A stretch of 64,000 nucleotides of DNA from an uncultured Planctomycetia bacterium. Lineage in GTDB: Bacteria > Omnitrophota > Gorgyraeia > Duberdicusellales > 4484-171. Below, one piece after another: positions 11,299 to 64,000 of the stretch (the stretch's first letter is position 1; each line of letters opens with the position of its first letter). A program made the position numbers and the translations under genes. The DNA lies in NCBI GenBank assembly GCA_964489445.1, contig CAZAYU010000001.1, positions 146,276 through 210,275 on the forward strand, in the 5' to 3' direction. The notes beneath the pieces were generated by a model. It was not told the origin of the DNA. It saw nothing but the letters and a program-made list of their open reading frames with translations, and did not search any database.

Positions 11299-11787
11299 AT
11301 GCTTGATGCTTATTTAAAAGATGATATAATTTTGTACATTATGATTGAAGATAGAATTTATCAAGAGTACATTCAAGCTTTGAGATCAAAAAACAAACAA
11401 AAAAGCGTGTTTTTAAGTTTCATTCGTGCTGAACTTAAAAATAAAGCAATTGATTTAAAAAAAGATAGATTAGATGACACGGAAGCCTTAGTAGTTCTCA
11501 AAAAACAGCAAAAAAAACTTAACGATCAAAAAGAAAGCATTACAGCTTCAGGAAGAATTAACATGGTTGACGACATTGAAAAAGAAATATCCTCACTAGC
11601 AGAGTACCTTCCGAAACCTCTAGGAGAAGACCAACTGCTAAAAATAATTGAATCAAAAATAGCCGCGATAGACAGCCCTTCAATGAAAGACATGGGAAAA
11701 ATAATGACATCTGTACTTTCCGAAGTCGGATTACGCGCTGATTCTAGGATGGTTAGTTCTATCGTTAAAAATAGGCTTTCTTCTTAA
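11299..11787 (+). CDS. yqeY: GatB/YqeY domain protein
   Basis: 162 aa. Typical YqeY features: N-terminal AYLKD...RIYQEY-like region and C-terminal GKIMTSVLSEVGLRADSRMVSSIVKNRL. Confidence 0.75.
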   Translation: MLDAYLKDDIILYIMIEDRIYQEYIQALRSKNKQKSVFLSFIRAELKNKAIDLKKDRLDDTEALVVLKKQQKKLNDQKESITASGRINMVDDIEKEISSLAEYLPKPLGEDQLLKIIESKIAAIDSPSMKDMGKIMTSVLSEVGLRADSRMVSSIVKNRLSS

Positions 11788-49992: not shown

Positions 49993-50071
49993 ATTTTCTT
50001 TCCTCTATCCATTTTTTCTTCTATCAATCTATACCTTCCAATTTAATATTTTTCTTATCACTTAAACATTC

Positions 50072-50986
50072 TTAAGCTCGTGGATGCGCTTTTTCATATA
50101 CTGCTTTAAGTGAATTAATCGTTAAGTGGGTATATACTTGAGTAGTTGCTATGCTTGAATGGCCTAAAAGCTCTTGAACACTCCGCAGGTCAGCACCACG
50201 ATTAAGCAAATGCGTTGCAAATGAATGACGAAAGGTGTGTGGAGAAATTTTTACAGACATTGCCGCTTCGTTGATATACTTATAAATAATTCCTCTTACC
50301 CCCCGATCGCTTAGGTTACCGTAACGCTTGTTCACAAATAAATATTTATTACTGTCTGTTCGTTTATCTAAATAGTTTTTAATACTGTTAATTGCCGGCT
50401 CACCTAAAGGGAGCAATCTTTCTTTCCTCCCTTTGCCTTTTACTTTAACAAATCCACTAATTAAGTCTACATTCTCAATTTTTGAGGAAACCATCTCCGA
50501 AACTCTAGCGCCAGTAGAATATAAAAATTCAAGAATGGCCTTATCGCGCAACACTAGGACTCCTGTTCCTTTCGGAAGCTCCAGTACCGCTTCTACTTCT
50601 TTTTCTGTCATGAATTTGGGCAACGGTTTATCCAAGCGAGGATAAATCAATGTATCTGCCGGATTATTTTTAGTTATCTGCTCTCGGACAATAAATTTAA
50701 AAAAACTTTTTAGCGTTGAAATTTTTCGAGAAAGCGTCCGCTTACTTAATCGCTTTCCGCTAAGCAAACTTAAAAATTTTCGGAGAAGAAAATAATCAAT
50801 ATCCTTTACATCTTTTCCTCCTTGAGATCCTAAAAATAAATCAAACTCATTAAGATCAGTTCTATAATTTTTAACCGTATGCCCAGAATAATTCTTTTCG
50901 ATGGCTAAATAATTTAAGAATTTATTAGTATAATAAGAAAAAGGTATCATTACTTTGTTTATTCCATATATAAATGTTAGAAACAC
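50072..50986 (-). CDS. xerC: tyrosine recombinase XerC/XerD
   Basis: C-terminal HTFRHSFATHLLNRGADLRSVQELLGHSSIATTQVYTHL catalytic R-H-R-Y region. 304 aa. Confidence 0.85.
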   Translation of the reverse strand: MFLTFIYGINKVMIPFSYYTNKFLNYLAIEKNYSGHTVKNYRTDLNEFDLFLGSQGGKDVKDIDYFLLRKFLSLLSGKRLSKRTLSRKISTLKSFFKFIVREQITKNNPADTLIYPRLDKPLPKFMTEKEVEAVLELPKGTGVLVLRDKAILEFLYSTGARVSEMVSSKIENVDLISGFVKVKGKGRKERLLPLGEPAINSIKNYLDKRTDSNKYLFVNKRYGNLSDRGVRGIIYKYINEAAMSVKISPHTFRHSFATHLLNRGADLRSVQELLGHSSIATTQVYTHLTINSLKAVYEKAHPRA

Positions 50987-51026
50987 AAAAAATTTAATCT
51001 ACTGCCAAGAAAACATTACTTAGAAC

Positions 51027-53012
51027 TTAAGTGCCTTCTCCTTCAGCTTCTTCATCTTTTTCTTCGTTATTGTCTTCAGGAAGATTACGAGAGGTATAAG
51101 TACATTTTGGAAATTTACTACAACCATAAAAATTCTGTCCTCTTCTATTTCTCCTCTCAATTAACTCCCCTTCTTCACATCCCGGACATTTAATCCCGCT
51201 GGTAATACTTTCCGCATAGCGACATTTCGGAAAAGTTTCACAACTTAAAAATCTCCCTCTTCTTGACCACTTTACAACTAGCCGCCCATTACAATCAGGA
51301 CAAAATTTATCTGAATACTCTATTTCTTTAGTAATAGTTGCCAGTGTATTTTTAACTTTTTCACTAAAGGCAGGATAAAAGTCTTTAAGAATGCTGTTCC
51401 ATTTTATCTCACCTTGCTCAACCTTATCTAACTCGGACTCCATAAATGCCGTAAACCCTTCATTGATTACATCCGAAAAAGACCCAACAAGAAGATCATT
51501 GACTTTAATACCTAAAACAGTAGGTTTAAAAGCTCTTTTTTCCCGACGAGCATAATTACGGGCAATCAATGTATTAATAGTCGGAGCATAAGTCGACGGT
51601 CTGCCGATCCCTTTCTCCTCAAGTAATTTAACTAAAGAAGCATCATTATAGCGAAAAGGAGGCTTAGTTACATGTTCTAGCCACTTTAAATCATTCAAAA
51701 TAACTGCTTTTCCTTTGACTAATTCCGGAAGCTGACTCTCCTCTTTTTCTTCAAAAGATCCAAAAGCTTTCAGGTATCCACGGAAAAGTACTTTTCTTCC
51801 CGTTACTTCAAATTGAGCATCTTGAGAAATAATACGTACTTTAGTGTTTTCGAATAACGCTGGAGACATAAAACCGACAATAAATCTCTTCCAGATCAAC
51901 TCATAAAGCCTGCGCTCTTCATCATTTAAACTATCCGGTAGATCATTTGGTGTTCTATAGACATTAGTAGGTCGTATAGCTTCATGAGCTAGCTGAGCGC
52001 CTTTCTTTTTCGGGTAGTGGTATTCTTTATCAAACAGATATTCTTTACCAAAGGTCATCTCAATAAAACTACGTGCCTCTTTTTTTGCTTTCGGGCTCAC
52101 ATGAAAGGAGTCAGTTCTCATATAAGTAATTAGCCCTTCACTCTTATCCTCAACCTTAACCCCCTCATACAATTTCTGCGCAACAAACATGGTTTTTTGC
52201 GCAGAAAATTTTAAACGATTAAAAGCATCCTGCTGTAAAGAAGATGTAATGTAGGGAGGCGGCGGTTTCTTCTTGCTCTCTTTTCTAGTTATATTCTTTA
52301 CACGAAATTCTTGCTCCTTAATTTTTCCAATACAATCAATAACGTTTTGCTTATCCTTAAAAATCGCTTTTTCGCCTTTATATTTATCAAGTTTTGCCTT
52401 AAAGAGAATGCTCTCTGATTTAAATTCAGCTTCTGCGCTAAAGGTAGTTTGAGGAATAAAATTTAAGATTTCTTTTTCACGATCTACAACAAATTTTAAA
52501 GCAATTGACTGAACTCTTCCCGCAGACAACCCACGCACTATCCTTTTCCATAATAGCGGAGAAAGCAAATATCCCACTACTCGATCAAGTAATCTTCTGG
52601 CAATCTGCGCGTCGACTTTGTGCATATCTAAGCGCCCTGGTTTTTTAAACGCTTTTTTCAGAGCATCTTCGGTTATTTCATGGAAAACCACTCTGCAGAA
52701 TTTCTTTCCTTTTTGTGGAAGTCTTTCTTTTATGTGCCAGCTTATCGCTTCTCCCTCCCGATCAGGATCAGTGGCTAAATAAATAATTTTTTTATTTTTG
52801 GCTTTACTCTTTAGCTGATTAACAATTTTTTCTTTGCCGGGAATAATTCGGTAAACCGGTTCAAAATCATTTTCCACATCCACAGAAAGCTTGTTGGTAG
52901 GTAAGTCTACTAGATGCCCCATAGAGGAGACCACCTCGTACTCTTTACCTAATATCGAAGATATTGTCTTTGATTTTGTAGGTGACTCGACAATTACTAA
53001 ATACTTACTCAT
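51027..53012 (-). CDS. topA: DNA topoisomerase I
   Basis: N-terminal Toprim (LVIVESPTKSKTI, DPDREGEAISWH) and C-terminal Zn ribbons (CPDCNG, CPGCEEG). 661 aa. Confidence 0.9.
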   Translation of the reverse strand: MSKYLVIVESPTKSKTISSILGKEYEVVSSMGHLVDLPTNKLSVDVENDFEPVYRIIPGKEKIVNQLKSKAKNKKIIYLATDPDREGEAISWHIKERLPQKGKKFCRVVFHEITEDALKKAFKKPGRLDMHKVDAQIARRLLDRVVGYLLSPLLWKRIVRGLSAGRVQSIALKFVVDREKEILNFIPQTTFSAEAEFKSESILFKAKLDKYKGEKAIFKDKQNVIDCIGKIKEQEFRVKNITRKESKKKPPPPYITSSLQQDAFNRLKFSAQKTMFVAQKLYEGVKVEDKSEGLITYMRTDSFHVSPKAKKEARSFIEMTFGKEYLFDKEYHYPKKKGAQLAHEAIRPTNVYRTPNDLPDSLNDEERRLYELIWKRFIVGFMSPALFENTKVRIISQDAQFEVTGRKVLFRGYLKAFGSFEEKEESQLPELVKGKAVILNDLKWLEHVTKPPFRYNDASLVKLLEEKGIGRPSTYAPTINTLIARNYARREKRAFKPTVLGIKVNDLLVGSFSDVINEGFTAFMESELDKVEQGEIKWNSILKDFYPAFSEKVKNTLATITKEIEYSDKFCPDCNGRLVVKWSRRGRFLSCETFPKCRYAESITSGIKCPGCEEGELIERRNRRGQNFYGCSKFPKCTYTSRNLPEDNNEEKDEEAEGEGT

Positions 53013-53077
53013 TTTTTATTATTCAACTCCTATTTTTATGCACGCTACTATACACCTTACACTAACTACTTTTATCA

Positions 53078-53950
53078 TCAATATTTTAGCTCCTCCACTA
53101 TATCCTCTAAGCAGTCAACAAGCTTGGCACCTTCCTTAATTAACGCATGGGTTCCTTTGCTAAAAGCAGAGTTTATACTTCCAGGTATTGCAAAAACTTC
53201 CCGGTTTTGCTCAGAAGCTAAATGAGCCGTTATTAAGGCACCACTCCTTTTAGCTGCTTCAATAACCAGCACCCCTTTAGACAATCCGCTAATAATACGA
53301 TTTCGACGAGGAAAATTTTCTTTTAGTGGAGACATCCGAAGTGGAAATTCAGATATCACCGCTCCCTGCCGGGAAATATTTTCAGCAAGCAGTTTATTCT
53401 CTCTAGGATAAATGTTAAGCAACCCACTCCCTAAAACAGCAACACTTTTATACTCCCTAACTGCTTCCTGATGAACCATAGTGTCGATACCCATGGCTAA
53501 ACCAGAAACTATAACTATTCCTAACTCGGATAATTGTCGAGAAAAGCTCTTAGCCACAGAAATGCCATAAGTTGTAGGTTTACGACTTCCTACTATTGCA
53601 AACAAATCTTCACTCAGCACATTCCGATTCCCCTTAAGATAAATGACCAACGGGGGAGAACCTATTTCTTTCAAAAGCAAGGGATAATCTTTGTCAAAAA
53701 TATCAATGCATTCTATCCCTTCCTTCTCTATTAATTCCCATTCCTGTTCTAGAAACGAAGAATTACGCAAAGAAATTATTTTTTCAATATCACTCTCAGT
53801 TAAAGAAACAATCTGGCGTAAATCACTGTATTTTGCTTTAAATATTTCTTCACTACCCGAATAAGCCTTGATGACTGCCTTAAGTTTACGAAAAGGAAGA
53901 TCTAAAAAATTAAAAAAAATTGAACTTTTTTTTGCCACACTTATTCTCAA
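53078..53950 (-). CDS. dprA: DNA processing protein DprA (Smf)
   Basis: IVGSRKPTTYG...IVSGLAMGIDTMVHQ Rossmann-like DprA core. 290 aa. Confidence 0.85.
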   Translation of the reverse strand: MRISVAKKSSIFFNFLDLPFRKLKAVIKAYSGSEEIFKAKYSDLRQIVSLTESDIEKIISLRNSSFLEQEWELIEKEGIECIDIFDKDYPLLLKEIGSPPLVIYLKGNRNVLSEDLFAIVGSRKPTTYGISVAKSFSRQLSELGIVIVSGLAMGIDTMVHQEAVREYKSVAVLGSGLLNIYPRENKLLAENISRQGAVISEFPLRMSPLKENFPRRNRIISGLSKGVLVIEAAKRSGALITAHLASEQNREVFAIPGSINSAFSKGTHALIKEGAKLVDCLEDIVEELKY

Positions 53951-54516
53951 CTAGATATTTTAGAATTAATGAGTTCCTCACTACCTAGAATACGGATAAT
54001 TTCACTAGCAATATCTTGGGGTAACATACTTTCCGTATCAATTACATGATGAGCTTGTTTATAGTAGCACTCTCTCTCTTCCAACAACTCCTTAATTTTG
54101 TCTAAAGGATCGTCAACACTAAGAAGAGGCCGTTGATCATCGTTGCGTATTCTTTCATAAATTATCAAAGCAGACGCCTTAAGAGAAAAAACTATTCCTG
54201 TGCTTTTGAGTGTTTTTAAGTTATCTTCACTGCAAATCATTCCTCCGCCACAGCTTACCACTAAGTTATCTCTTAGCGACAACTCCCCGACAACCTTCTT
54301 TTCCAGTGCTCTAAAGTAAGGCTCTCCTTTCTGAGAAAAAATATCAGCAATTTTTAATCCCTGTTTATCTTCAATAACTTTATCAGTCTCGACAAATTCC
54401 CGAGCTATCTTTTTAGCTAAAACCTTTCCTGAAATGCTCTTGCCGGTACCCATAAAGCCAGTTAAATAAATATTTTTCATAGATAATATTATGGCGAGAA
54501 TAAAAGATTTTGTCAA
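53947..54516 (-). CDS. aroK: shikimate kinase
   Basis: IYLTGFMGTGKSISGKVLAK P-loop. 189 aa. Confidence 0.8.
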   Translation of the reverse strand: MTKSFILAIILSMKNIYLTGFMGTGKSISGKVLAKKIAREFVETDKVIEDKQGLKIADIFSQKGEPYFRALEKKVVGELSLRDNLVVSCGGGMICSEDNLKTLKSTGIVFSLKASALIIYERIRNDDQRPLLSVDDPLDKIKELLEERECYYKQAHHVIDTESMLPQDIASEIIRILGSEELINSKISS

Positions 54517-54608
54517 GCAGGAGCCTATTGTAAAACGTTAGCCAAAACTTATGTGGCTGATATTTTCCTTGCAAAACACGCTTTAGAATATTATAAGCAA
54601 TTTTTCGC

Positions 54609-55781
54609 TCACTTAACTGATTTTCCGTACCTTTTAATCAAATCAAGGGCGATTATTGATCTTTGAATCTGGTTAGTACCTTCATAAATTTGAGTAATTT
54701 TAGCATCACGCATAAATTTCTCTATAGGGTAATCACGCATATAGCCATACCCTCCATATATCTGGACAGCATTAGTAGTTACTTCCATGGCCACATCAGA
54801 AGCAAACATCTTTGCTGCTGCGCTAGCTGGCCCAATATTTTTAATACCTCTATCAACCATCGAGGCAACACTGTAAACTAAGCTTCTGGCTGCTTCGGTC
54901 TTTGTAGCCATATCCGCAAGCATCCACTGAATACCCTGAAAAGAACTTATTGTTTTACCAAATTGAACCCGCTGATGAGCATATTTAACCGCTAATTCTA
55001 GTGCCCCCTGAGCAATACCTAGCGCCTGAGCAGCTACACCAGGCCGAGATTGATCAAATGTTTTCATTGTTGCAATAAATCCAGTGCCTTCTTTACCGCC
55101 AAGCATATTCTCCATCGGAACTTTTACATCATTAAAAATTAATTCTCCGGTTGAAGAAGCTCTAATCCCTAGTTTTTCTTCTTTTTTACCAAAAGTAAAC
55201 CCGGGCATTCCTTTTTCTAAAATAAATGCCGACATTCCCCTTGGACCCCTATTCTTATTAGTAACCGCAATTACTGTATAAATCTGTGCATCCCCGCCGT
55301 TGGTGATAAAATGCTTTGTTCCGTTAAGAATGTAATAATCACCATCTTTTTTCGCTGTTGTCTTTACTCCAGCTGCATCCGAACCCGCCTCCGGCTCAGT
55401 TAAAGCAAAAGCAGTCAAGTTCTTTCCCGAAGCAATATCCGGTAAATACTTTTTTTTCTGTTCTTCTGTACCGTTAATTAGAATCGGAAACATTCCTAAA
55501 TAAGAAGCAGCGTAAGCAGTGGCCACGCCTCCATCAACCCGGGAAATCTCCTCAGTAGCAAGACATAAATCCATAAGATTGCCACCCATTCCGCCATATT
55601 GCTCTGGTATACATAAAGAGAATAAATCCGACTGGCCTAAAATTTTAATAATATCTGCAGGAAATTCTTCTTTTTCATCAAGCTCCCGAGACCTAGGCCT
55701 TATCTTCTCTTCAGCAATCTGGCGGCATAAATCACGCAGCATTTTTTGGTCATCGCTTAATGGATAGTCAATCATAAACAT
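54609..55781 (-). CDS. acyl-CoA dehydrogenase (butyryl-CoA dehydrogenase-like)
   Basis: ACAD family pattern (AFALTEPEAGSDA, QIYGGYGYMRDYPIEKFMRDAKITQIYEGTNQIQR). 390 aa. Confidence 0.85.
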   Translation of the reverse strand: MFMIDYPLSDDQKMLRDLCRQIAEEKIRPRSRELDEKEEFPADIIKILGQSDLFSLCIPEQYGGMGGNLMDLCLATEEISRVDGGVATAYAASYLGMFPILINGTEEQKKKYLPDIASGKNLTAFALTEPEAGSDAAGVKTTAKKDGDYYILNGTKHFITNGGDAQIYTVIAVTNKNRGPRGMSAFILEKGMPGFTFGKKEEKLGIRASSTGELIFNDVKVPMENMLGGKEGTGFIATMKTFDQSRPGVAAQALGIAQGALELAVKYAHQRVQFGKTISSFQGIQWMLADMATKTEAARSLVYSVASMVDRGIKNIGPASAAAKMFASDVAMEVTTNAVQIYGGYGYMRDYPIEKFMRDAKITQIYEGTNQIQRSIIALDLIKRYGKSVK

Positions 55782-55940
55782 TTTAAGCCTCCTTTCTCTA
55801 AAAAAATATTTATTTCCAAACGATAAATAACTATTTTAGAGGTAAATTGTAACCGTAAATCCGATATCTGTCAATTTTTTTCTATTAAGGATCTTACTAC
55901 TACATAAATATTTCACACTTTATTTGATGCACTTTAGCTG

Positions 55941-55982
55941 ATCACATATTAATTGTCAAAGCCCATTAATGTGTGATATAAT
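55941..55982 (+). promoter_or_regulatory. promoter with extended -10 (TTGTCA -18 nt- TGaTATAAT) embedded in a 13-bp-arm inverted repeat
   Basis: TTGTCA at 55953-55958. TG-n-TATAAT at 55974-55982. Inverted-repeat arms ATCACATATTAAT (55941-55953) and ATTAATGTGTGAT (55964-55976) have one mismatch. Confidence 0.5.
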
Positions 55983-56025
55983 TGCATAGATTACACATAA
56001 AAAACATTATAAAGGGAGGGAAAGA

Positions 56026-57435
56026 ATGATGAATAAAAAATTAATACTTTGTTTATTGTTAATACCTATATCTTTATTGATACTTCCTATCTCTTCTTTT
56101 GCCCAAACAACCATCCCTGAAGAAAGAATTACAGTTATTACTTATTATCCTGCGCCTTTTGGTGTATACAATGAATTACGATCAAAGAGAATGGCAATTG
56201 GCAATACATATTATGATCCAGCAGGATTTTGCTTTGATGATGGAACAGGAAACTGTGACCCTGCTTTACAAATAGAAATTCCTCAAGGAACCGACTTAGT
56301 AATAGAAGGAAATGTGGGAATTGGCACTGTAGACCCTAAAGAACAGCTTAGCGTACATAGTGGCACAACACAAGGGCAGATTCATATTTCAGGGGTTTCT
56401 GATGGCGGGCTTACTTATTCTGCAGTTTATTTGCACGATAATACTGCGGATAATTGGAATAATTGGGTTTTGACTCATAAAAACGGAACCGGGGATGTAA
56501 TGGAGAATGATTTTTGGCTTTCCTATTGGAATGCTGCGGGCGTTCTAGAAACTCCTTTTGCAATTGATCATGAAAGCGGTAATATAGGTATTGGAACCAC
56601 TGTCCCTTCGTACAATTTGGATGTTGCCGGAGAAATTAATGGTTCAGATGGTGGAAGTAGGGTTGGTCTTTTAGCACATCCCAATTATCCAAGTTTATTT
56701 ATCGTTAGTTACAGTAATGAACCAAGTCATACAACGGATTCAGGTAATGGTGGGCATCCGGTAATTCATACATATGATATCGGTGGGACAGTCACTTCTC
56801 CGTCAAATACCAAAAAAAATAATCCGATCTTATCTCTTGTTGGTTCGGGTTATTACAGCCCGACCCAAGCAGTACAAGCAGCAAGATTGCAATTTGTTAC
56901 TGAAGATAATTTTAGTTCTTCACATGCTAAAACAGCAATTGTTTTTTATCCCGGAAATAAAGTTATTACTATGGGTGACGGAAAAGGGTCTTATCTAGAA
57001 GCGCTAAGAATTACCAGCCAGGGAGCAGTAACTTATAAACCTAGAAATACTGCACCACTTGCATCTGGCTCGGCAGCACCTGGCTTAGAAGGCAGCCTTT
57101 ATTACAACAACGGAACTGGATCAGAAAGCGAAGGTTTTAAATACCATGATGGAGACAATTGGAAGGATTTTGGGGGAAGCTCAACCGGATGTGATGAAAC
57201 CTGTTCATACTACAGAAGCGGTTCAGATTCTCTGCCTTGCGTAAAAAAAGATGAAAGTAACTGTTCCAAATTAGGCTATACCGGAGGGTGGAATACTAAA
57301 CCTATTGAAGGTTACCAAAGCTGCGGAAGAGTTATCACGGTTAATACCGGACCATCAACCGACCAACAACACTATAGCTATGTCTGCGGTACTACAGGTT
57401 GGGTTTTAACTGGATACGGCGAAACTCACTACTAA
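56026..57435 (+). CDS. secreted Cys-rich protein with tail-fibre-like GNVGIGT repeats (469 aa)
   Basis: Signal peptide (LLLIPISLLILPISSFA). Two copies of a GN[VI]GIGTxxP...L.V motif. The C-terminal ~90 aa holds 8 Cys. It is one of only two plus-strand genes in the window (the other is yqeY). Confidence 0.6.
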   Translation: MMNKKLILCLLLIPISLLILPISSFAQTTIPEERITVITYYPAPFGVYNELRSKRMAIGNTYYDPAGFCFDDGTGNCDPALQIEIPQGTDLVIEGNVGIGTVDPKEQLSVHSGTTQGQIHISGVSDGGLTYSAVYLHDNTADNWNNWVLTHKNGTGDVMENDFWLSYWNAAGVLETPFAIDHESGNIGIGTTVPSYNLDVAGEINGSDGGSRVGLLAHPNYPSLFIVSYSNEPSHTTDSGNGGHPVIHTYDIGGTVTSPSNTKKNNPILSLVGSGYYSPTQAVQAARLQFVTEDNFSSSHAKTAIVFYPGNKVITMGDGKGSYLEALRITSQGAVTYKPRNTAPLASGSAAPGLEGSLYYNNGTGSESEGFKYHDGDNWKDFGGSSTGCDETCSYYRSGSDSLPCVKKDESNCSKLGYTGGWNTKPIEGYQSCGRVITVNTGPSTDQQHYSYVCGTTGWVLTGYGETHY

Positions 57436-57552
57436 ATAAAACTTTATTTATTAAAGCCATACTTACCCTACTTCTTTAAAAATCAATACTCATTTTTGAT
57501 ATAAAGGTTATTTTTTTAATTCTGATAACTTTTATTAGATTGCAATCAAGAA

Positions 57553-58788
57553 TTAAGCACGAGCTAAATTAGAAATAATTTCTGTTAAGGTAGGATGAAT
57601 AAATAAGCATTTTTTTACATCTTGCAGTGTAAGTTTATTTTTAATACACAACGACATCACATTGATTAGTTCTCCGGCTGATTCTGAAATTATTCCGGCA
57701 CCGATTATTCTTTCTTGCTCATCAACAATCAACTTTATAAACCCGTCATTGTCCCCATAAACAACAGCAGAAGAGACTTTTAGAAAACTTGACTTTATTA
57801 CTTTACACTCAATTCCCTTTGCTTCAGCCTCCTCCTCTAATATGCCCGCCTGAGCAATTTGGGGACAAGAAAACACACATTCCGGCAAACCATAATAGTC
57901 TTCTTTGTCTATCTGTCCGGCAATGTTTTTAAGACAAATTTCCGCTTGATACTCGGCAGTATAAGCATAAAGTTTTTTTCCGTTAATATCGCCACAAGCA
58001 TAGATATTACTAATATTGGTTTTCATGAATTTATCCGTATTTATCCAGCCTTTATCATTCAATAAAATATCGGCATTCTTTAGCTGCAGATTATTCGCAT
58101 TCGGTTTACGTCCTAACGCTGAAATCACTAAATTAAAATCATCCAAATTATACTCAGCTACATCTTGTGATGTTTTTATGTTCAGCCCTCTTTTTCTTAG
58201 GATTGTTTGAAGACGCTGAGAAAGATAGCTATCAAAACCAGGAAGAACACGATTTTCTTTTTCAATCAATAAAACATCTTTGTTGAAATTATGTAAAAGA
58301 CAACTGAATTCTATTCCTATTGCCCCGGCGCCAACTACTAAAATTTTATCCGGCAATTCTTCTACACCAAATAAATCTTGTGCGAAAATAACTTTAGAGT
58401 GGTTTATCAAGCTTTTAGGCGATGAACCTCCCGCAATAACAATATACTTTGCAGCGACCACCTTCTCATCCACTCTCAGCGTAGTATTGTTTAAAAATGA
58501 AGCTTCCCCCCAGAAAAAATTAACACCTTGTTTTTCTAAGAAAGAAGTAAGCGGAGATTTAATTTTTTTTATAATCTCTCTACTACCCTCCAGGCAATTT
58601 TTCCAGGATTGATTGGTTCGTGAAGCTTTAAGAAGAAATTTTGTCGGAATGCACCCTTGGTTTAGACAGGTTCCACCTAAAGTTTCAGGATTTTTTTCAA
58701 TTATGACTGTTTTTAACTTATATTTTAAAGCGTTTTTTGCGCAGGCAATTCCTGCTGGCCCTGAGCCAATTATTGCTAAATCATACAT
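57553..58788 (-). CDS. FAD-dependent pyridine nucleotide-disulfide oxidoreductase, dihydrolipoyl dehydrogenase-like
   Basis: DLAIIGSGPAG. Redox-active GGTCLNQGCIPTK. C-terminal HPTLTE. 411 aa, shorter than typical Lpd. Confidence 0.75.
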   Translation of the reverse strand: MYDLAIIGSGPAGIACAKNALKYKLKTVIIEKNPETLGGTCLNQGCIPTKFLLKASRTNQSWKNCLEGSREIIKKIKSPLTSFLEKQGVNFFWGEASFLNNTTLRVDEKVVAAKYIVIAGGSSPKSLINHSKVIFAQDLFGVEELPDKILVVGAGAIGIEFSCLLHNFNKDVLLIEKENRVLPGFDSYLSQRLQTILRKRGLNIKTSQDVAEYNLDDFNLVISALGRKPNANNLQLKNADILLNDKGWINTDKFMKTNISNIYACGDINGKKLYAYTAEYQAEICLKNIAGQIDKEDYYGLPECVFSCPQIAQAGILEEEAEAKGIECKVIKSSFLKVSSAVVYGDNDGFIKLIVDEQERIIGAGIISESAGELINVMSLCIKNKLTLQDVKKCLFIHPTLTEIISNLARA

Positions 58789-59693
58789 TTTTTAAATGCT
58801 TTTTCCGCTTTTTTTAATTCTTTTTTCTCACGGGCCGATATTTTCAACTCAATAATTCTCTCAATCCCCTTCCGGTTAACAACGCAAGGAACGCCCAGGC
58901 AAGCATCAAATATTCCGTATTCTCCGTTTAAATACACAGAAACTGGAATAACTTTATCGGCATTATTGCAAATTGCCTCAATTAAACTGCAACAAGACAG
59001 CCCTGGAGCAAAGTGAGCGCTGCGATTCTTTAGGTGACCAACAATCTCTGCACCACGATATTGTACTTTTTGTTTTATCTCTGCTATTTTATCCTTATTG
59101 AAAACCTGAGCTATCGGCTTGTTTTTTATTTTAATCTGCTGCGCATCAACAATCATCTGATTATTGTGCGGACCGTAAATACATCCGGTCATTTCCGCTA
59201 TCGGATGCTTAGAATGCTTATAAAGAATATTCAGTAGTCGGTTAGTATCTAACGAAGAGCCCATTCCAAACACCTGATTACGATTAAATTTAGTTTCCTT
59301 CAAAAGCGTATACGTAATAACATCCAAAGGATTACTGACCGCAATCACTATTGAGTTGCAAGCTAAGCTTTTAATTTCTAACGCAGTAAGCCTGGCTATT
59401 TCCTTGTTAATTTTTAAAAGATCCGCTCTTGTCATTCCTTTTTTTCGAGGAATCCCAGCGGTTAAAACTACAATGTCTGAATTTTTAATTGCTGTATATT
59501 TGCTTGAACCTTTGATGCTAGTTGAAAATTTTAAAATCCCCCTTGTGTCTTCTAAGTCTTTAGCTACACCTTGGGCTAAACCCGGACAAATATCCACCAA
59601 AGCAAGCTCTCGGGGCGGAATTCGATTTAGGATACTAAATGCTAAAGTAGAGCCAACATTTCCGGAACCAATTATCGAAATTTTCTTAATCAT
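58776..59693 (-). CDS. mdh: malate (LDH-like) / L-lactate dehydrogenase
   Basis: KISIIGSGNVGS and GIPRKKGMTRADLL. 305 aa. Malate versus lactate specificity is not resolvable by eye. Confidence 0.75.
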   Translation of the reverse strand: MIKKISIIGSGNVGSTLAFSILNRIPPRELALVDICPGLAQGVAKDLEDTRGILKFSTSIKGSSKYTAIKNSDIVVLTAGIPRKKGMTRADLLKINKEIARLTALEIKSLACNSIVIAVSNPLDVITYTLLKETKFNRNQVFGMGSSLDTNRLLNILYKHSKHPIAEMTGCIYGPHNNQMIVDAQQIKIKNKPIAQVFNKDKIAEIKQKVQYRGAEIVGHLKNRSAHFAPGLSCCSLIEAICNNADKVIPVSVYLNGEYGIFDACLGVPCVVNRKGIERIIELKISAREKKELKKAEKAFKKCMI

Positions 59694-59767
59694 TAGTTGA
59701 ATTTATTGGTTTTATATATTAGCGTGCCAGTGTCAGGATAAAAGAAAACATAACACATGAATACAAT

Positions 59768-60892
59768 TTATTTTTTCTTTAGCTCAATGCTCACGACTGT
59801 CTTTTTGAGAATTTTAATTTTTTTAATGATTGCCTGTGCCATTTCTTTGGTACCTACTGCCGATGGATCATCACGCAAGGCCTTTAAGTCGTACGTAACA
59901 GACACATTCTCCTCGATAACTTCTTTTACTGCCTGCCTCAAAATCAATGCTTTCTCTGATTCGTTTATGTGTTCAAGCATCAGAGCTGCAGACATGATAG
60001 TTGCAATCGGGTTAACTTTATTTTTTCCGGTATATTTTGGAGCACTTCCATGAGTCGGCTCAAAAATAGCTATTGTCTCGCCTATATTTGCACCAGCTGC
60101 TAATCCTAAACCACCAATTAAGCCAGCACCTAAATCAGAGATAATGTCTCCATAGAGATTAGGTAAAACCAAAACATCAAAGTTCTCCGGACGTTTTACC
60201 AGCTGCATTGATAAATTATCGACTATAACATCTTCGGCATTTATTTTTTCTTTAAATTCACTAGCTACTTTATAAAAATTATCTAAGAATAAACCGTCTG
60301 TACACTTCATAATATTTGCTTTATGCACGCAGGTTACTTTCTTACGTTTGTGCTTTAGTGCATATTCAAATGCAAAACGAGCAATCCGCTCAGAAGCAAA
60401 CACAGATATTGGCTTAATAGAGACTGCACTATCATTCCTTATCTGTTTTTCGGATAAACAATTAATTTCCTTGATTATCTTTATAGCCTCCGGAGTGCCT
60501 TCTGAAAACTCAATTCCTGCGTATAAATCTTCGGTATTTTCACGCATAATTACTATATCAACATCCTTACCGATCCCCGCAGGGATATTAAACGATTTAA
60601 TCGGACGCAGGCAAACGTATAAATCAAATATTTGACGCATTGCAACGTTAATAGAACGAAACCCTTTCCCCACAGGTGTCGTAATTGGCCCCTTTAGCGC
60701 TACTTTATTTTTTCTAATTGAGTCAAGCGTATCTTCCGGAAGAAGACTTCCGCAAGTTTTCAAGGCAATCTCTCCAGCTTGCTTTACTTCCCATTCTATA
60801 TCAACATCCAGAGCTTCCAAACAAGAAACTGCTGCATCAGTAACTTCTGGTCCAGTCCCGTCACCGGGTATTAGTGTAATCTTTTGCTTCAT
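59768..60892 (-). CDS. isocitrate dehydrogenase-like beta-decarboxylating dehydrogenase (Icd/LeuB family)
   Basis: LKGPITTPVGKGFRSINVAMRQIFDLYVCLRP closely resembles the Icd signature ([32 protein letters not shown]). 374 aa. Confidence 0.7.
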   Translation of the reverse strand: MKQKITLIPGDGTGPEVTDAAVSCLEALDVDIEWEVKQAGEIALKTCGSLLPEDTLDSIRKNKVALKGPITTPVGKGFRSINVAMRQIFDLYVCLRPIKSFNIPAGIGKDVDIVIMRENTEDLYAGIEFSEGTPEAIKIIKEINCLSEKQIRNDSAVSIKPISVFASERIARFAFEYALKHKRKKVTCVHKANIMKCTDGLFLDNFYKVASEFKEKINAEDVIVDNLSMQLVKRPENFDVLVLPNLYGDIISDLGAGLIGGLGLAAGANIGETIAIFEPTHGSAPKYTGKNKVNPIATIMSAALMLEHINESEKALILRQAVKEVIEENVSVTYDLKALRDDPSAVGTKEMAQAIIKKIKILKKTVVSIELKKK

Positions 60893-60930
60893 TTTTTAAT
60901 ACTCCCTGCTATTTCTTAACAAAATGGCTA

Positions 60931-61428
60931 TTAGATACCAAACCCGTTGTGTTTCTGTAAATAATTAACAATACCCTTTTGGACAATCAACTCCTTACGG
61001 AACCTATCCCAAGGACTAAAAGCTGTAATTTTTCTGCCATCTTTATTGATTGCTCCTTTATCATAATCAACAGATATCTGTTGATTTTCATTTAAGAAGG
61101 AAGTGTCCGCTTCAACTAATGCTAATCCGATATTAAAAGCATTACGATAAAAAATACGGGCAAAGCTTTTGGCTACAACGCAAAGCACTCCTGCTTCCTT
61201 TATTACCCACGGCGCTTGCTCACGTGAAGACCCCATGCCAAAATTTTCACCAGCAACAATTATCGGATTCTGCCCATTTATTTCTTTATAAAATCCCGGA
61301 CGAATGTCCTCAAACAAATAATAAGCAAGCTCTTTCATGTCAGTAATCGAGAACTTGTACCTTCCGGAAATTATCCAGTCAGTATTGATGTCATCCCCAA
61401 ACTTAAACACTCTGCCTTTAATAATCAT
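60931..61428 (-). CDS. 3-isopropylmalate dehydratase / aconitase-family small subunit (LeuD-like, short archaeal-type)
   Basis: 165 aa with [15 protein letters not shown], the LeuD/aconitase swivel-domain motif. Confidence 0.8.
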
Positions 61429-61501
61429 TTTTAATAAATATATACTTTATAAAACTATGCTTGATATTGTTTTTCTTTTCTTGTATCCACTCTTAGATAA
61501 A

Positions 61502-62551
61502 TTACAAACTTGCAAATTCGGCAACGCTTTTAACTCTACTTAATGCTACTTCTTTAGTAATAATCTGCTTCTTGTAAAGTTCCTTTAAAGACTTATCCAT
61601 TGTATGCATTCCGTATTGCGCACCCATTTGCAACAAAGAAGGAATCTGGGCGATGTCGTTCTCTCTTATTAAATTTCTAATTCCTGGTGTAGAAACCATA
61701 ACTTCTGTAGCCATAACCCGAGAATCACCTCCAACGGTAGGCAACAGCACCTGAGACACTACGCCTTGCAAACACTCAGCAAGCTGAACAGTAACCTGTC
61801 TCTGTTGGTATGGCGGAAACACATCAATTATTCTTTGTATTGTTTGCGGAGCATCGGGCGTATGCAAGGTGGCTAGGACTAAATGCCCGGTTTCAGCAGC
61901 GGTTAGAGTAGTAGATATCGTATCTAAATCACGCATCTCCCCTACAACAATTACATCCGGATCTTGGCGTAGCGTTCTCTTTAATGCCTCCGGAAATGAG
62001 TGAGTATCTGTATATAGCTCTCTTTGTTTTATAATGCTTCTTTTATTAGTATGGACAAATTCAATCGGATCTTCTATGGATATTATCATTTTTTCCTGCT
62101 CACTATTAATAAGGTCAACCATCGAAGCTAAAGTAGTGCTTTTTCCTGTACCAGTAGGACCAGTCACTAGTATCAAGCCTGTGGGTTTCTGTATAAAACT
62201 ATACACAATATCTGGAAGTCCCAATTTACCAATGGCTGGAATTTCCCGCGGAATCCGCCTTAACGCAGTTTCAACATTCCCCCTTTGATAATGAGTATTA
62301 ACCCGAAAACGATCCATGTTCGGAAGTGAAAAAGAAAAATCTAGTTCTTTATTATTCTCAAAAATAGCTTTTTGATCATCGCCGAGCATGCTATACACTA
62401 ACGCCTTAGCATCCTCTCTTGTCAATGAGGGAAAGTCAGTGGGTAAAAGCTGCCCGTTAATTCTTAACACCGGAGGCCTACCGACAGTAATATGCAAATC
62501 GCTGGCTTTTCGCTCTTGAGTTAACTCAAGAAGAGTGTTAATGTCTACCAT
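61502..62551 (-). CDS. pilT: type IV pilus retraction ATPase PilT
   Basis: Walker A GPTGTGKST. PilT-type GEMRD and His box. 349 aa. Confidence 0.85.
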   Translation of the reverse strand: MVDINTLLELTQERKASDLHITVGRPPVLRINGQLLPTDFPSLTREDAKALVYSMLGDDQKAIFENNKELDFSFSLPNMDRFRVNTHYQRGNVETALRRIPREIPAIGKLGLPDIVYSFIQKPTGLILVTGPTGTGKSTTLASMVDLINSEQEKMIISIEDPIEFVHTNKRSIIKQRELYTDTHSFPEALKRTLRQDPDVIVVGEMRDLDTISTTLTAAETGHLVLATLHTPDAPQTIQRIIDVFPPYQQRQVTVQLAECLQGVVSQVLLPTVGGDSRVMATEVMVSTPGIRNLIRENDIAQIPSLLQMGAQYGMHTMDKSLKELYKKQIITKEVALSRVKSVAEFASL

Positions 62552-62633
62552 ATTTGAACCTCCTGGCTATCTATCATCAAATGAAAATACATAATATTTG
62601 TATTACAGATAGTATACACATAAAATTTATGCA

Positions 62634-63887
62634 CTATGCTGTTAAATATTTTCTCGGATCTTCTATCTTCCCTTTAATTGCCGAAGCAACTACCGTTGCT
62701 GGAGAAGCCAGATAAATATAACTATTAGGATTACCCATTCTCCCTTTAAAATTTCTGTTTGCCGTAGAAATTGCCACCTCCTCATCAGCAAGAACACCTT
62801 GATGAGTTCCTACACAAGGACCGCAACCAACCGGTAAAATTACTGCCCCAGCATCTAAAAAAGTCTTTACTAATCCCTTTTTTAGTGCCTGGGAAAATAT
62901 TTTTTCGGAAGCTGGGGCGACAAATAATTTAACATGCTGATGCACTTTCCTATTTTTTAGAATAGAAGCAGCAATCGTCAGATCTTCTAACCGCCCATTA
63001 GTACAAGTTCCTAAAAATGCTTGGTCGATTTTTATTCCTCGCAGCTTACTTACCGGAAAACTATTATCAACACTATGTGGCTTAGCAACATAAGGCGATA
63101 TTTTAGAAATATTAAACTCTAATATTTTTTCATAAGCACAATCTTGATCTGAGTAAATAGGATTATACCTTCCGGAAATATGTTTTAAAAAATGTTTTAC
63201 TTTCTTATCCGGGGCAATTAAACCACACTTTGCTCCAAACTCAATGCTCATATTAGTAATTGTAAATCGGGCATCCATTGAAAATTTATCAACCACTTCT
63301 CCAGAAAATTCCACCGCTTTGTAGGTAGCACCATTAGACCCTAATTTACTAATTATATATAAAATTACATCCTTACTATAAACCCCTGGCGGAAGTTTCC
63401 CATTAATTACAATTTTAAAAGTCGCGGGTACTTTAAACCAATTCATCCCGGTAGCAAGAGTAACTGCTAAATCTGTAGAACCCACACCGAACGCTGCCGC
63501 GCCTAATGCTCCAGCGGTTGAAGTGTGTGAATCTGCTCCTAGTATCAGCCTTCCCGGAAAGGCAATGCCCTCTTCTGCTACTAGTTGATGTGACACGCCA
63601 CACCCAACATCAAATAATCTATTTTTGTTTTTTTTTGAAAATGCCCGCATGCGAGAATGAATTCTTGCAACCCCGATATTTGGAGCAGGACTGCTATGAT
63701 CAATAAACATCGCATACCGTTTAGGATTAATAATATTTTTTTTAAGATTAGAAATGCTATCCAACACCAAAGAGGTAGTTCCATCTTGAGAAAAACAAAA
63801 ATCAACTTTGCAAACTCCAACGTCACCAGCACGCAAAGATCTTCCGGAATGATTACTGAGTATTTTCTCAATTATTGTTTTTCCCAT
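62634..63887 (-). CDS. 3-isopropylmalate dehydratase / aconitase-family large subunit (LeuC-like, short type)
   Basis: 417 aa with aconitase-family cluster ligand regions (GVCKVDFCFSQDGT, VGCGPCVG...TANRNFKGRMG). Confidence 0.85.
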   Translation of the reverse strand: MGKTIIEKILSNHSGRSLRAGDVGVCKVDFCFSQDGTTSLVLDSISNLKKNIINPKRYAMFIDHSSPAPNIGVARIHSRMRAFSKKNKNRLFDVGCGVSHQLVAEEGIAFPGRLILGADSHTSTAGALGAAAFGVGSTDLAVTLATGMNWFKVPATFKIVINGKLPPGVYSKDVILYIISKLGSNGATYKAVEFSGEVVDKFSMDARFTITNMSIEFGAKCGLIAPDKKVKHFLKHISGRYNPIYSDQDCAYEKILEFNISKISPYVAKPHSVDNSFPVSKLRGIKIDQAFLGTCTNGRLEDLTIAASILKNRKVHQHVKLFVAPASEKIFSQALKKGLVKTFLDAGAVILPVGCGPCVGTHQGVLADEEVAISTANRNFKGRMGNPNSYIYLASPATVVASAIKGKIEDPRKYLTA

Positions 63888-63899
63888 ATTCCTTGACTT

Positions 63900-64000
63900 T
63901 TATTTTAACGTCTTAAGAAAATTTTTCACTCTTTCGGTGCCTTTCTTAATTTGCTCAATCCCCGTTGCAAAGCTAAACCGAACAAATCCTTCCGCACCAA
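63900..64000 (-). CDS. C-terminal end of a class I/II (PLP) aminotransferase-like gene (5' part outside window)
   Basis: Manual translation of the minus strand gives ...GAEGFVRFSFATGIEQIKKGTERVKNFLKTLK*. The RFSFA-type C-terminus is typical of aspartate/aromatic aminotransferases. The stop is at 63900-63902. Confidence 0.4.
   Translation of the reverse strand, partial: GAEGFVRFSFATGIEQIKKGTERVKNFLKTLK

Follow-up and report, generated by a model that had tools for sequence, protein, structure and literature searches.

Does a gene with phage-tail-fibre-like repeats belong to a phage or to the cell when it lies among housekeeping genes, and what might its product do? This question is raised by one gene (56026..57435, plus strand) in a 64,000-nucleotide (nt) stretch of DNA, here called the window, from contig CAZAYU010000001.1 of an uncultured bacterium that carries a Planctomycetia label and is placed in the phylum Omnitrophota. 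The open reading frame (ORF) was confirmed as a complete coding sequence of 469 amino acids (aa) and a stop codon. An earlier note, made from the letters of the window, had described it as a lone gene for a secreted Cys-rich protein and had offered an adhesin, a bacteriocin-like protein or a receptor-binding protein as possible roles.

The product, here called the fibre protein, consists of distinct modules, of which the first shaft unit is homologous to a solved trimeric fibre. It belongs to a family that combines a fixed base with variable tips, and the genomic context is cellular and not that of a phage. The reading to which we give somewhat better than even confidence is that of a Sec-exported modular fibre, probably displayed on the cell surface as a homotrimer and probably acting as an adhesin with its specificity in the variable C-terminal tip.

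Modules of the fibre protein

The connection to solved structures lies in shaft unit 1 (aa 93–205; 56302..56640, plus strand), a beta-helix unit between two capping-loop motifs. The first motif, GNVGIGTVDPKEQL (aa 95–108; 56308..56349, plus strand), fits the capping-loop consensus V-G-G/N-pi-x-x-P-x-x-x-L (PMC10769870), and the second, GNIGIGTTVPSYNL (aa 185–198; 56578..56619, plus strand), is aligned to GFFGINTAAPAYNI, the distal one of the capping loops in Bd3182 from Bdellovibrio bacteriovorus. The two GN[VI]GIGT motifs that they contain (NVGIGTVDPKEQL and NIGIGTTVPSYNL) are 90 aa apart and match, in the alignment, the two Bd3182 loops, proximal and distal respectively. Both copies named in the earlier note are therefore present, at aa 95 and aa 185, and the only other such motif in any frame of the window is one off-frame GFVGIG.

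The crystal structure of Bd3182 residues 632–782 is an intertwined trimeric beta-helix with a surface cleft bounded by two identical capping loops (PMC10769870). A phmmer search against the PDB gave one significant match to the fibre protein, chain C of 8OJN (8ojn_C, the same Bd3182 residues), with E 1.7e-4 over aa 94–210. Foldseek with the AlphaFold model, the check that the earlier note had proposed, had its best PDB matches in Bd3182 (8onc and 8ojn; E 2.4e-4, probability 1.0) and in Bd2133 (8ond), and no housekeeping family emerged. The AlphaFold2 monomer model reached a predicted local distance difference test score (pLDDT) of 70–85 only over aa 60–205. By homology to Bd3182, the fibre protein may be expected to trimerise.

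Among viral proteins, PHROGs gave weak matches to two tail-fibre or tail families (aa 94–206), and Foldseek against the predicted viral structures of BFVD gave 25 matches at E <= 1e-3. Many of these are phage "intramolecular chaperone auto-processing" (S74) proteins, several are cyanophage tail-fibre-like proteins, and many others are unnamed. The suggestion that the repeats are related to tail fibres and adhesins was thus borne out from three sides, namely by the PHROG tail-fibre families, the structures 8ojn, 8onc and 8ond, and the S74 and tail-fibre models of BFVD. The cap motifs were also matched on GVMAG giant-virus contigs (L088 and L090; collected loci and proteins are cited here by L and P numbers).

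Upstream of the shaft, the protein begins with a signal peptide (aa 1–26; 56026..56103, plus strand) that consists of MMNKK, a hydrophobic core of 17 residues and the end SFA|Q, with no lipobox. The maximum Kyte-Doolittle hydropathy of the leader over 12 residues is 3.0, and 110 of 111 family members have an equivalent hydrophobic leader, with a small-x-small end followed by Q or E, immediately ahead of the module that they share. The judgement rests on leader anatomy and hydropathy, which is a heuristic, and cleavage is predicted after SFA26. With Sec-type n, h and c regions and this recurrence in the family, the signal peptide proposed earlier is evident. A lipoprotein reading was rejected, as Cys9 follows LIL (no lipobox) and lies only 4 residues past the charged n-region.

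Downstream of unit 1 follows shaft unit 2 (aa 206–345; 56641..57060, plus strand), which ends in a degenerate third cap, LRITSQGAVTYKPRNTAPL (aa 327–345). In P0076, a unit between two caps is aligned by BLASTP with residues 217–346 at 32% identity (133 aa, E 5e-13); within this alignment ITSQGAVTYKPRNTAP of the fibre protein lies over ITSAGNVGINTTTP of P0076, and LRITSQGAVTYKPRNTAP lies exactly over MRITSAGNVGINTTTP. The middle region is therefore another unit of the shaft, closed by a degenerate third cap; its pLDDT in the AlphaFold2 model is below 50. It had been described as a Gly/Ser/Thr-rich region; it is mildly rich in these residues (31%) but is really a further fibre unit.

Next to the shaft lies a neck (aa 346–384, EGSLYYNNGTGSESEGFKYHDGDNWKDFGG; 57061..57177, plus strand), followed by a short GSSTG linker. 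The neck is shared with P0005, P0006, P0072 and P0075 at 43–52% identity; a G and a W are invariant, and a Y, a D and a G are nearly so. In the neck-bearing relatives a Gly-rich linker comes next, and unrelated C-terminal domains lie beyond that. The AlphaFold2 model shows short beta strands in the neck at pLDDT 60–73, and the fibre protein keeps only the distal half of the neck motif, G-x-x-Y-Y-N...Y-x-D-G-x-x-W. A precomputed PF26696 (PTL_trimer) label is placed at the longer neck of P0006, P0015, P0017, P0021, P0023 and P0025 and is absent from P0001, the entry identical to the fibre protein. This label was not confirmed, as Pfam scans of P0006, P0015, P0017, P0021 and P0025 at E up to 10 gave no PF26696 match, which we take to reflect a missing model in the local Pfam copy.

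The C-terminal knob (aa 385–469; 57178..57432, plus strand) holds six cysteines at positions 389, 393, 405, 413, 433 and 454. A C-terminal domain with eight cysteines had been proposed, and a Cys-rich tail indeed exists, but six cysteines lie in the last 85 aa and eight are reached only across the mature protein, with Cys69 and Cys77 of the N-terminal module (Cys9 belongs to the signal peptide). A HMMER search with aa 205–469 against 1.84 billion representative proteins returned seven matches, of which only P0072, P0075, P0076 and P0077 were meaningful; P0073 and P0074 were set aside as low-complexity repeat proteins. The only relative of the knob in this search was found in P0072, where it is also C-terminal, is 42% identical and has all six cysteines conserved. 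Pfam gave no match to the C-terminal 131 aa, and a profile of neck and knob had no significant match in the PDB, the best including antifungal proteins at E ~1.5. The pLDDT of the knob was below 50 in both AlphaFold runs.

One of the HMMER matches, P0077 (405 aa), is extremely AT-rich and Asn-rich, carries four tandem copies of the neck motif (VQGSIYFNTSEKMYEGYVGNEGEGWQPLGG) and resembles proteins of giant viruses or protists. The neck therefore circulates well beyond Omnitrophota.

The conserved base and its family

The module that defines the family by alignment is the N-terminal one (aa 27–92; 56104..56301, plus strand), which reads ERITVITYYPAPFGVYNELRSKRMAIGNTYY...C69...C77...DLVIE. Its core in the fibre protein is TxxTYYPAPFGVYxELRSxRMAIG, with T39, Y40, Y41, P42, P44, G46 and Y48 invariant or nearly so, and the family consensus is [E/D]x[ILV]T[ILV]xTYYPAP[FY]G[VI]Yx[EL][LM]RSxRMAIG. 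The module comprises ~65 aa with little regular structure predicted in the AlphaFold2 model, often holds a Cys-x(4-8)-Cys loop and leads into the first cap. No family was assigned by Pfam (at E up to 10) or by NCBIfam when the whole fibre protein was scanned. A profile of the N-terminal module and the first cap matched the structures of Bd2133, Bd3182, Bd1334 and Bd2439 in the PDB only via the cap. The module itself was not found in 2.9 million viral contigs of IMG/VR, where 11 confirmed matches cover the cap region only.

The first homolog search gave 71 proteins, many of which share the cap repeats alone (phage-like, giant-virus-like, Bacteroidota-type and Patescibacteria proteins). The N-terminal module stands directly after the leader in ~34 of 77 collected proteins, and the named matches in the protein search are from Omnitrophica, with one from Elusimicrobia. 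A scan of GTDB with one genome per species confirmed at least 388 copies of the module, of which the best 78 loci were examined. Almost all of these are in metagenome-assembled genomes (MAGs) labelled Candidatus Omnitrophota, and a few carry the labels "uncultured Planctomycetia" or "uncultured Planctomycetales". Up to five of the 78 loci are in one MAG. Family ORFs are short (130–640 aa), and the 76 ORFs at these loci differ in their tips: 13 end in S74, 18 are Cys-rich, 5 have the neck (3 of them also Cys-rich) and 40 have other ends.

Conservation falls steeply from one module to the next. Among the collected proteins, BLAST with the base of the fibre protein found 110 subjects and with shaft unit 1 100 subjects, whereas unit 2 had only 2, the neck 4 and the knob 1. 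Those copies that are closest to unit 1 occupy other positions in their proteins (62% identity in P0002, aa 239–344; 49% in P0007, aa 73–184). As conservation drops from base to knob and copies of unit 1 sit elsewhere in otherwise different fibres, the family is one of module shuffling on a fixed base. The S74 family PF13884 was precomputed on P0002, P0004, P0009, P0016 and P0027, and a local Pfam scan confirmed it on P0002 and P0004.

Several of these fibres might belong to one genome. The contigs of P0002 (S74), P0006, P0011 and P0021, each with a different C-terminus, have a GC content of 35–36% and tetranucleotide correlations of 0.985–0.992 with the window, compared with 0.75–0.94 for other Omnitrophota loci; in part they come from the same ENA study. 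This match in GC and tetranucleotide composition suggests, but does not prove, that five or more paralogs with differing tips are encoded in the genome of the window or in one very close to it. The gene had been called lone, which holds for its position within the window but not for its genome lineage, where the family is multi-copy.

In the literature searched, no description was found of the Omnitrophota fibre family, its base motif or its tips. The family is large and essentially undescribed.

A number of minor observations were made at the family loci. The Planctomycetia- or Planctomycetales-labelled MAG loci are L007, L009–L011, L013, L016, L017, L025, L026, L046, L054, L061, L068 and L071, and L009 encodes a protein that shares 74% identity with one from the window. 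Another family member, with a near-identical leader and base (ETTIPEEKITIITYYPAPYGIYNELR...), lies 21 nt downstream of P0005 (L102, 430–2220; L103, 269–2053); this tandem pair is truncated at the contig end, and further tandem fibre pairs occur at L008, L016, L022, L040, L047, L057, L063, L068 and L082. Directly downstream of P0011 lies a gene for a 271-aa secreted protein without Pfam domain (L098, 7501–8316; also L099, 2657–3472) with striking Cys-rich repeats (CNPYDCNPYDCDPYDCDCD; CYQTCYQTCYQTCC). Directly downstream of P0021 a 263-aa secreted protein with a zinc-protease-like HEFGH motif and no Pfam hit is encoded (L100, 7019–7810; also L101, 1998–2789). These two neighbours are unrelated to each other. 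The order of recA, recX and alaS recurs at 6 of the 78 loci.

Possible roles and related systems

The closest likeness is to the mosaic adhesive trimer (MAT) fibres of Bdellovibrio bacteriovorus, which experiments have shown to be trimers exposed on the cell surface, with tips that can be exchanged (Caulton et al. 2024, PMC10769870). With the non-S74 MATs, such as Bd2133 and Bd1334, the fibre protein shares a signal peptide, a capped beta-helix shaft and a swappable C-terminal tip; a conserved module also follows the leader in both, but it looks different here. Capping loops of the type VGIG/N-T-x-x-P-x-x-x-L delimit the shaft units in both, the Bd3182 shaft (8OJN/8ONC) is matched by sequence and by Foldseek, and in both cases the paralogs are scattered round the genome. 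There are also differences. The fibre protein has 469 aa and its family 130–640 aa, in contrast to ~630–1,150 aa in MATs; the orphan 6-Cys knob is unlike any solved MAT tip; and the fibre protein comes from an Omnitrophota host and is known from sequence alone. Since a signal peptide (judged heuristically), a capping-loop shaft and a variable non-S74 tip with differing paralogs were found, the fibre protein would count, as far as leader, shaft and tip are concerned, as a MAT family member in the broad sense of Caulton et al. A MAT-type fibre from the same candidate phylum has been noticed once before, as a single S74-type table entry: the Omnitrophica protein A0A2H0LB00 (COV76_08125, 713 aa, "S74-like") is given as MAT-like in Supplementary Table S3 of the MAT study (PMC10769870).

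The same kind of capped triple beta-helix shaft is found in phage S74 tail fibres and tailspikes (PF13884), such as the T5 L-shaped tail fibre pb1 and the K1F endosialidase. Unlike these, the fibre protein has a Sec signal peptide and a cellular N-terminal module and lacks both an S74 domain (no Peptidase_S74 hit in Pfam at E up to 10 and no SD.R.K motif) and a phage context. Because S74 domain and phage gene cluster are both lacking, identity with a phage S74 tail fibre was rejected. YadA-like trimeric autotransporter adhesins are modular trimeric surface fibres with a head and stalk architecture that serve in adhesion. Their likeness to the fibre protein is by function only. No YadA-type C-terminal anchor (no Pfam domain) is present, and the conserved end of the family is N-terminal and not C-terminal.

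On the favoured reading of an exported adhesive fibre, the following course might be envisaged. The gene would be transcribed as a single-gene unit, for which the orientation was observed and the promoter is predicted, and the product would be exported by Sec and cut after SFA26, as leader anatomy and conservation in the family suggest. The invariant N-terminal module (aa 27–92) would form the cell-proximal base, which might dock on a conserved envelope component, nucleate the trimer, or both; this role is suggested by its conservation, its position and the analogy with the Bdellovibrio MAT fibres. The two beta-helix units (aa 93–345) would form an intertwined shaft, each delimited by GNVGIGT-type capping loops. 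At the far end, the neck and the Gly/Ser linker would present an independently folding, disulfide-stabilised 6-Cys knob (aa 385–469) that may bind the target.

What the target might be can be approached from the family and from the phylum. An Omnitrophota-wide multigene family that keeps its base and swaps shaft units and tips points to a surface-recognition repertoire. Members of the Omnitrophota have been proposed to be predators or parasites in need of attachment devices (PMC10066038), and MAT fibres serve prey handling in Bdellovibrio (PMC10769870). Given the proposed epibiotic predatory or parasitic life of the phylum and this role of the MAT fibres, host or prey cell surfaces would most plausibly be the target.

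Several points weigh against the adhesin reading. Trimerisation, surface display and ligand are inferred; the fibre protein lacks the S74 chaperone that could drive assembly of a trimer, and the AlphaFold monomer is poor over aa 205–469 (pLDDT below 50). A Sec-exported fibre would also have to cross an outer membrane, and when 524 neighbour proteins from the 78 loci were clustered, no recurrent partner gene (chaperone, secretion or anchor) was found. The ~65-aa TYYPAPFGVY base differs from the ~130-aa beta-rich N-domain of MATs, a comparison by length and description only. Furthermore, the predatory or parasitic lifestyle is proposed for the phylum as a whole and not for this organism in particular.

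The same anatomical evidence also fits a structural or matrix fibre that the cell makes for its own use, be it envelope coat, aggregation, biofilm or abiotic attachment, and that is trimeric without recognising a host or prey. None of the measurements indicates a foreign target, the fibre genes lie dispersed between housekeeping genes, and the Omnitrophota member V. archaeovorus has been described with an extracellular "coat" (PMC10066038). However, an invariant base combined with rapidly changing and often orphan tips, and with several paralogs in a genome, is not what a purely structural role would lead one to expect. Such a pattern is characteristic of repertoires for recognition, as in MATs and the receptor-binding proteins of phages, and we regard the structural fibre as unlikely, if still worth serious consideration. 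Considerably less probable is a secreted bacteriocin or toxin-like factor in which the fibre would target a competitor's surface and the Cys-rich knob would kill or inhibit. The terminal domain is small, exported and disulfide-rich, and the knob profile resembles fungal Cys-rich antifungal proteins, although very weakly and without significance (E 1.5–1.7). No significant match to a toxin or bacteriocin family was obtained, no immunity, lysis or export gene is adjacent, and other members carry S74 chaperones or non-Cys beta-rich domains instead, which fits binding tips better. Of the three roles offered in the earlier note, the evidence thus favours adhesin or receptor-binding protein, whereas the bacteriocin option found no positive support.

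A further possibility is that the fibre protein is a tail fibre left behind by, or domesticated from, a prophage, a tailocin or a contractile injection system, since its shaft modules are shared with phage tail fibres and cap motifs are also found on viral contigs, those of giant viruses included. Virion tail fibres are assembled in the cytoplasm, so a Sec signal peptide is not expected on them, yet the fibre protein has one. No phage, tail, baseplate, tailocin or type VI secretion system genes were found in the window flanks or at the paralog loci, whose surroundings are of the housekeeping type; the comparison with homolog loci that had been suggested thus spoke for the cell. A tblastn search against 50,697 phage genomes gave no match, the N-terminal module is missing from IMG/VR, and the gene has a GC content (39.9%) near that of its neighbours. 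This origin is therefore very improbable, the least probable of those considered.

An extension of the adhesin reading, which we put forward tentatively and hold to be possible but rather unlikely, would treat the N-terminal module as an unrecognised phylum-wide base or sorting element that mounts interchangeable fibres on the surface, perhaps on a conserved envelope protein, a pilus or a giant coat protein. Short mosaic fibres, several per genome of ~1.5–1.8 Mb, would then set the host or prey range as an independent, miniaturised counterpart of the MATs, and the orphan 6-Cys knob would represent a new receptor-binding fold.

Omnitrophota are widespread, uncultured and ultra-small. For their attachment, only pili and giant ORFs have been discussed so far (PMC10066038). 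The fibre family, with a shaft homologous to experimentally characterised prey-binding Bdellovibrio fibres, provides concrete candidates, open to cloning, for the molecules by which an uncultured phylum might recognise its hosts. Its tips could serve as expressed probes to find the hosts of Omnitrophota lineages, and by means of the conserved base motif the repertoire of any MAG can be catalogued simply from sequence. Taken alone, the fibre gene is more modest, and the interest lies more in the family: the evidence supports an adhesin or receptor-binding reading, in which a short mosaic adhesin of tail-fibre type is exported by Sec and joins a base specific to the phylum to a Cys-rich orphan tip.

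Gene neighbourhood and upstream region

The fibre gene is flanked on one side by genes for TopA, DprA, AroK (shikimate kinase) and an acyl-CoA dehydrogenase, and on the other by genes for an Lpd-like pyridine-nucleotide-disulfide oxidoreductase, malate and isocitrate dehydrogenases (MDH, IDH), LeuD and a PilT-like ATPase. All neighbours within ~5 kb are housekeeping genes, with no phage gene among them, and flank annotation agrees with the earlier description of an acyl-CoA dehydrogenase gene and an lpd-like gene as the direct neighbours. The fibre gene is divergent from the former and convergent with the latter and therefore forms a single-gene transcription unit. One orientation is common to 47 of the 49 window genes of at least 150 aa, so that transcription of the fibre gene runs counter to that of the majority. 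It had been counted as one of only two plus-strand genes, and this proved correct for credible genes: the other is YqeY-like (11299–11787), and the remaining plus-strand ORFs lie inside longer minus-strand ORFs.

The GC skew of the plus strand over window positions 50000–64000 is about -0.1 to -0.3 and rises above zero (+0.03 to +0.15) over the fibre gene alone, which mirrors the coding strand. The identical protein P0001 comes from one ENA metagenome contig with unchanged gene order, a scan of metagenome contigs for close relatives gave none, and no Rfam family matched the gene or the DNA on either side of it. Other window proteins are 56–74% identical to proteins at Omnitrophota MAG loci, which in this analysis was the basis for placing the organism in that phylum.

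Upstream of the gene, a ribosome-binding site, GGGAGGG (56014..56020, plus strand), was read from the sequence 5 nt before the ATG. A promoter-like site TTGTCA-18-TGaTATAAT (55953..55982, plus strand) agrees with the sigma-70-like consensus at 11 of 12 positions and has a TG-extended -10 element. An inverted repeat with arms of 13 nt, ATCACATATTAAT and ATTAATGTGTGAT (55941..55977, no strand assigned), brackets the -35 hexamer. A strong regulated promoter had been claimed for the gene. A good sigma-70-like site exists, but the AT-rich intergenic region holds 7 promoter-like sites compared with 7.9 expected in shuffled sequence, and arms as long as those of the inverted repeat were reached in 14 of 300 dinucleotide shuffles, so that the repeat is only mildly unusual. 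As the sites are not above shuffles and the repeat stands out so little, the claim is not established.

Four half-sites of the type TCACA[CT]/GTGTGA (55913, 55942, 55971 and 55991) overlap the predicted -35 and -10 elements. The first three are spaced 29 nt apart, and the pair at 55942 and 55971 falls inside the inverted repeat. Half-sites and repeat could form a candidate operator bound by a dimeric regulator, of the CRP/FNR type or another, or could be a product of chance in AT-rich DNA.

On the downstream side, a PilT/PilB-type T2SSE ATPase (Pfam E 4e-44) is encoded ~4 kb from the fibre gene (window positions 61502–62551 and 62634–63887, both minus strand), and a T2SSE gene also lies ~6 kb from the paralog P0006 in L004. 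For the MAT fibres it has been speculated that fibres and type IV pili may interplay (PMC10769870).

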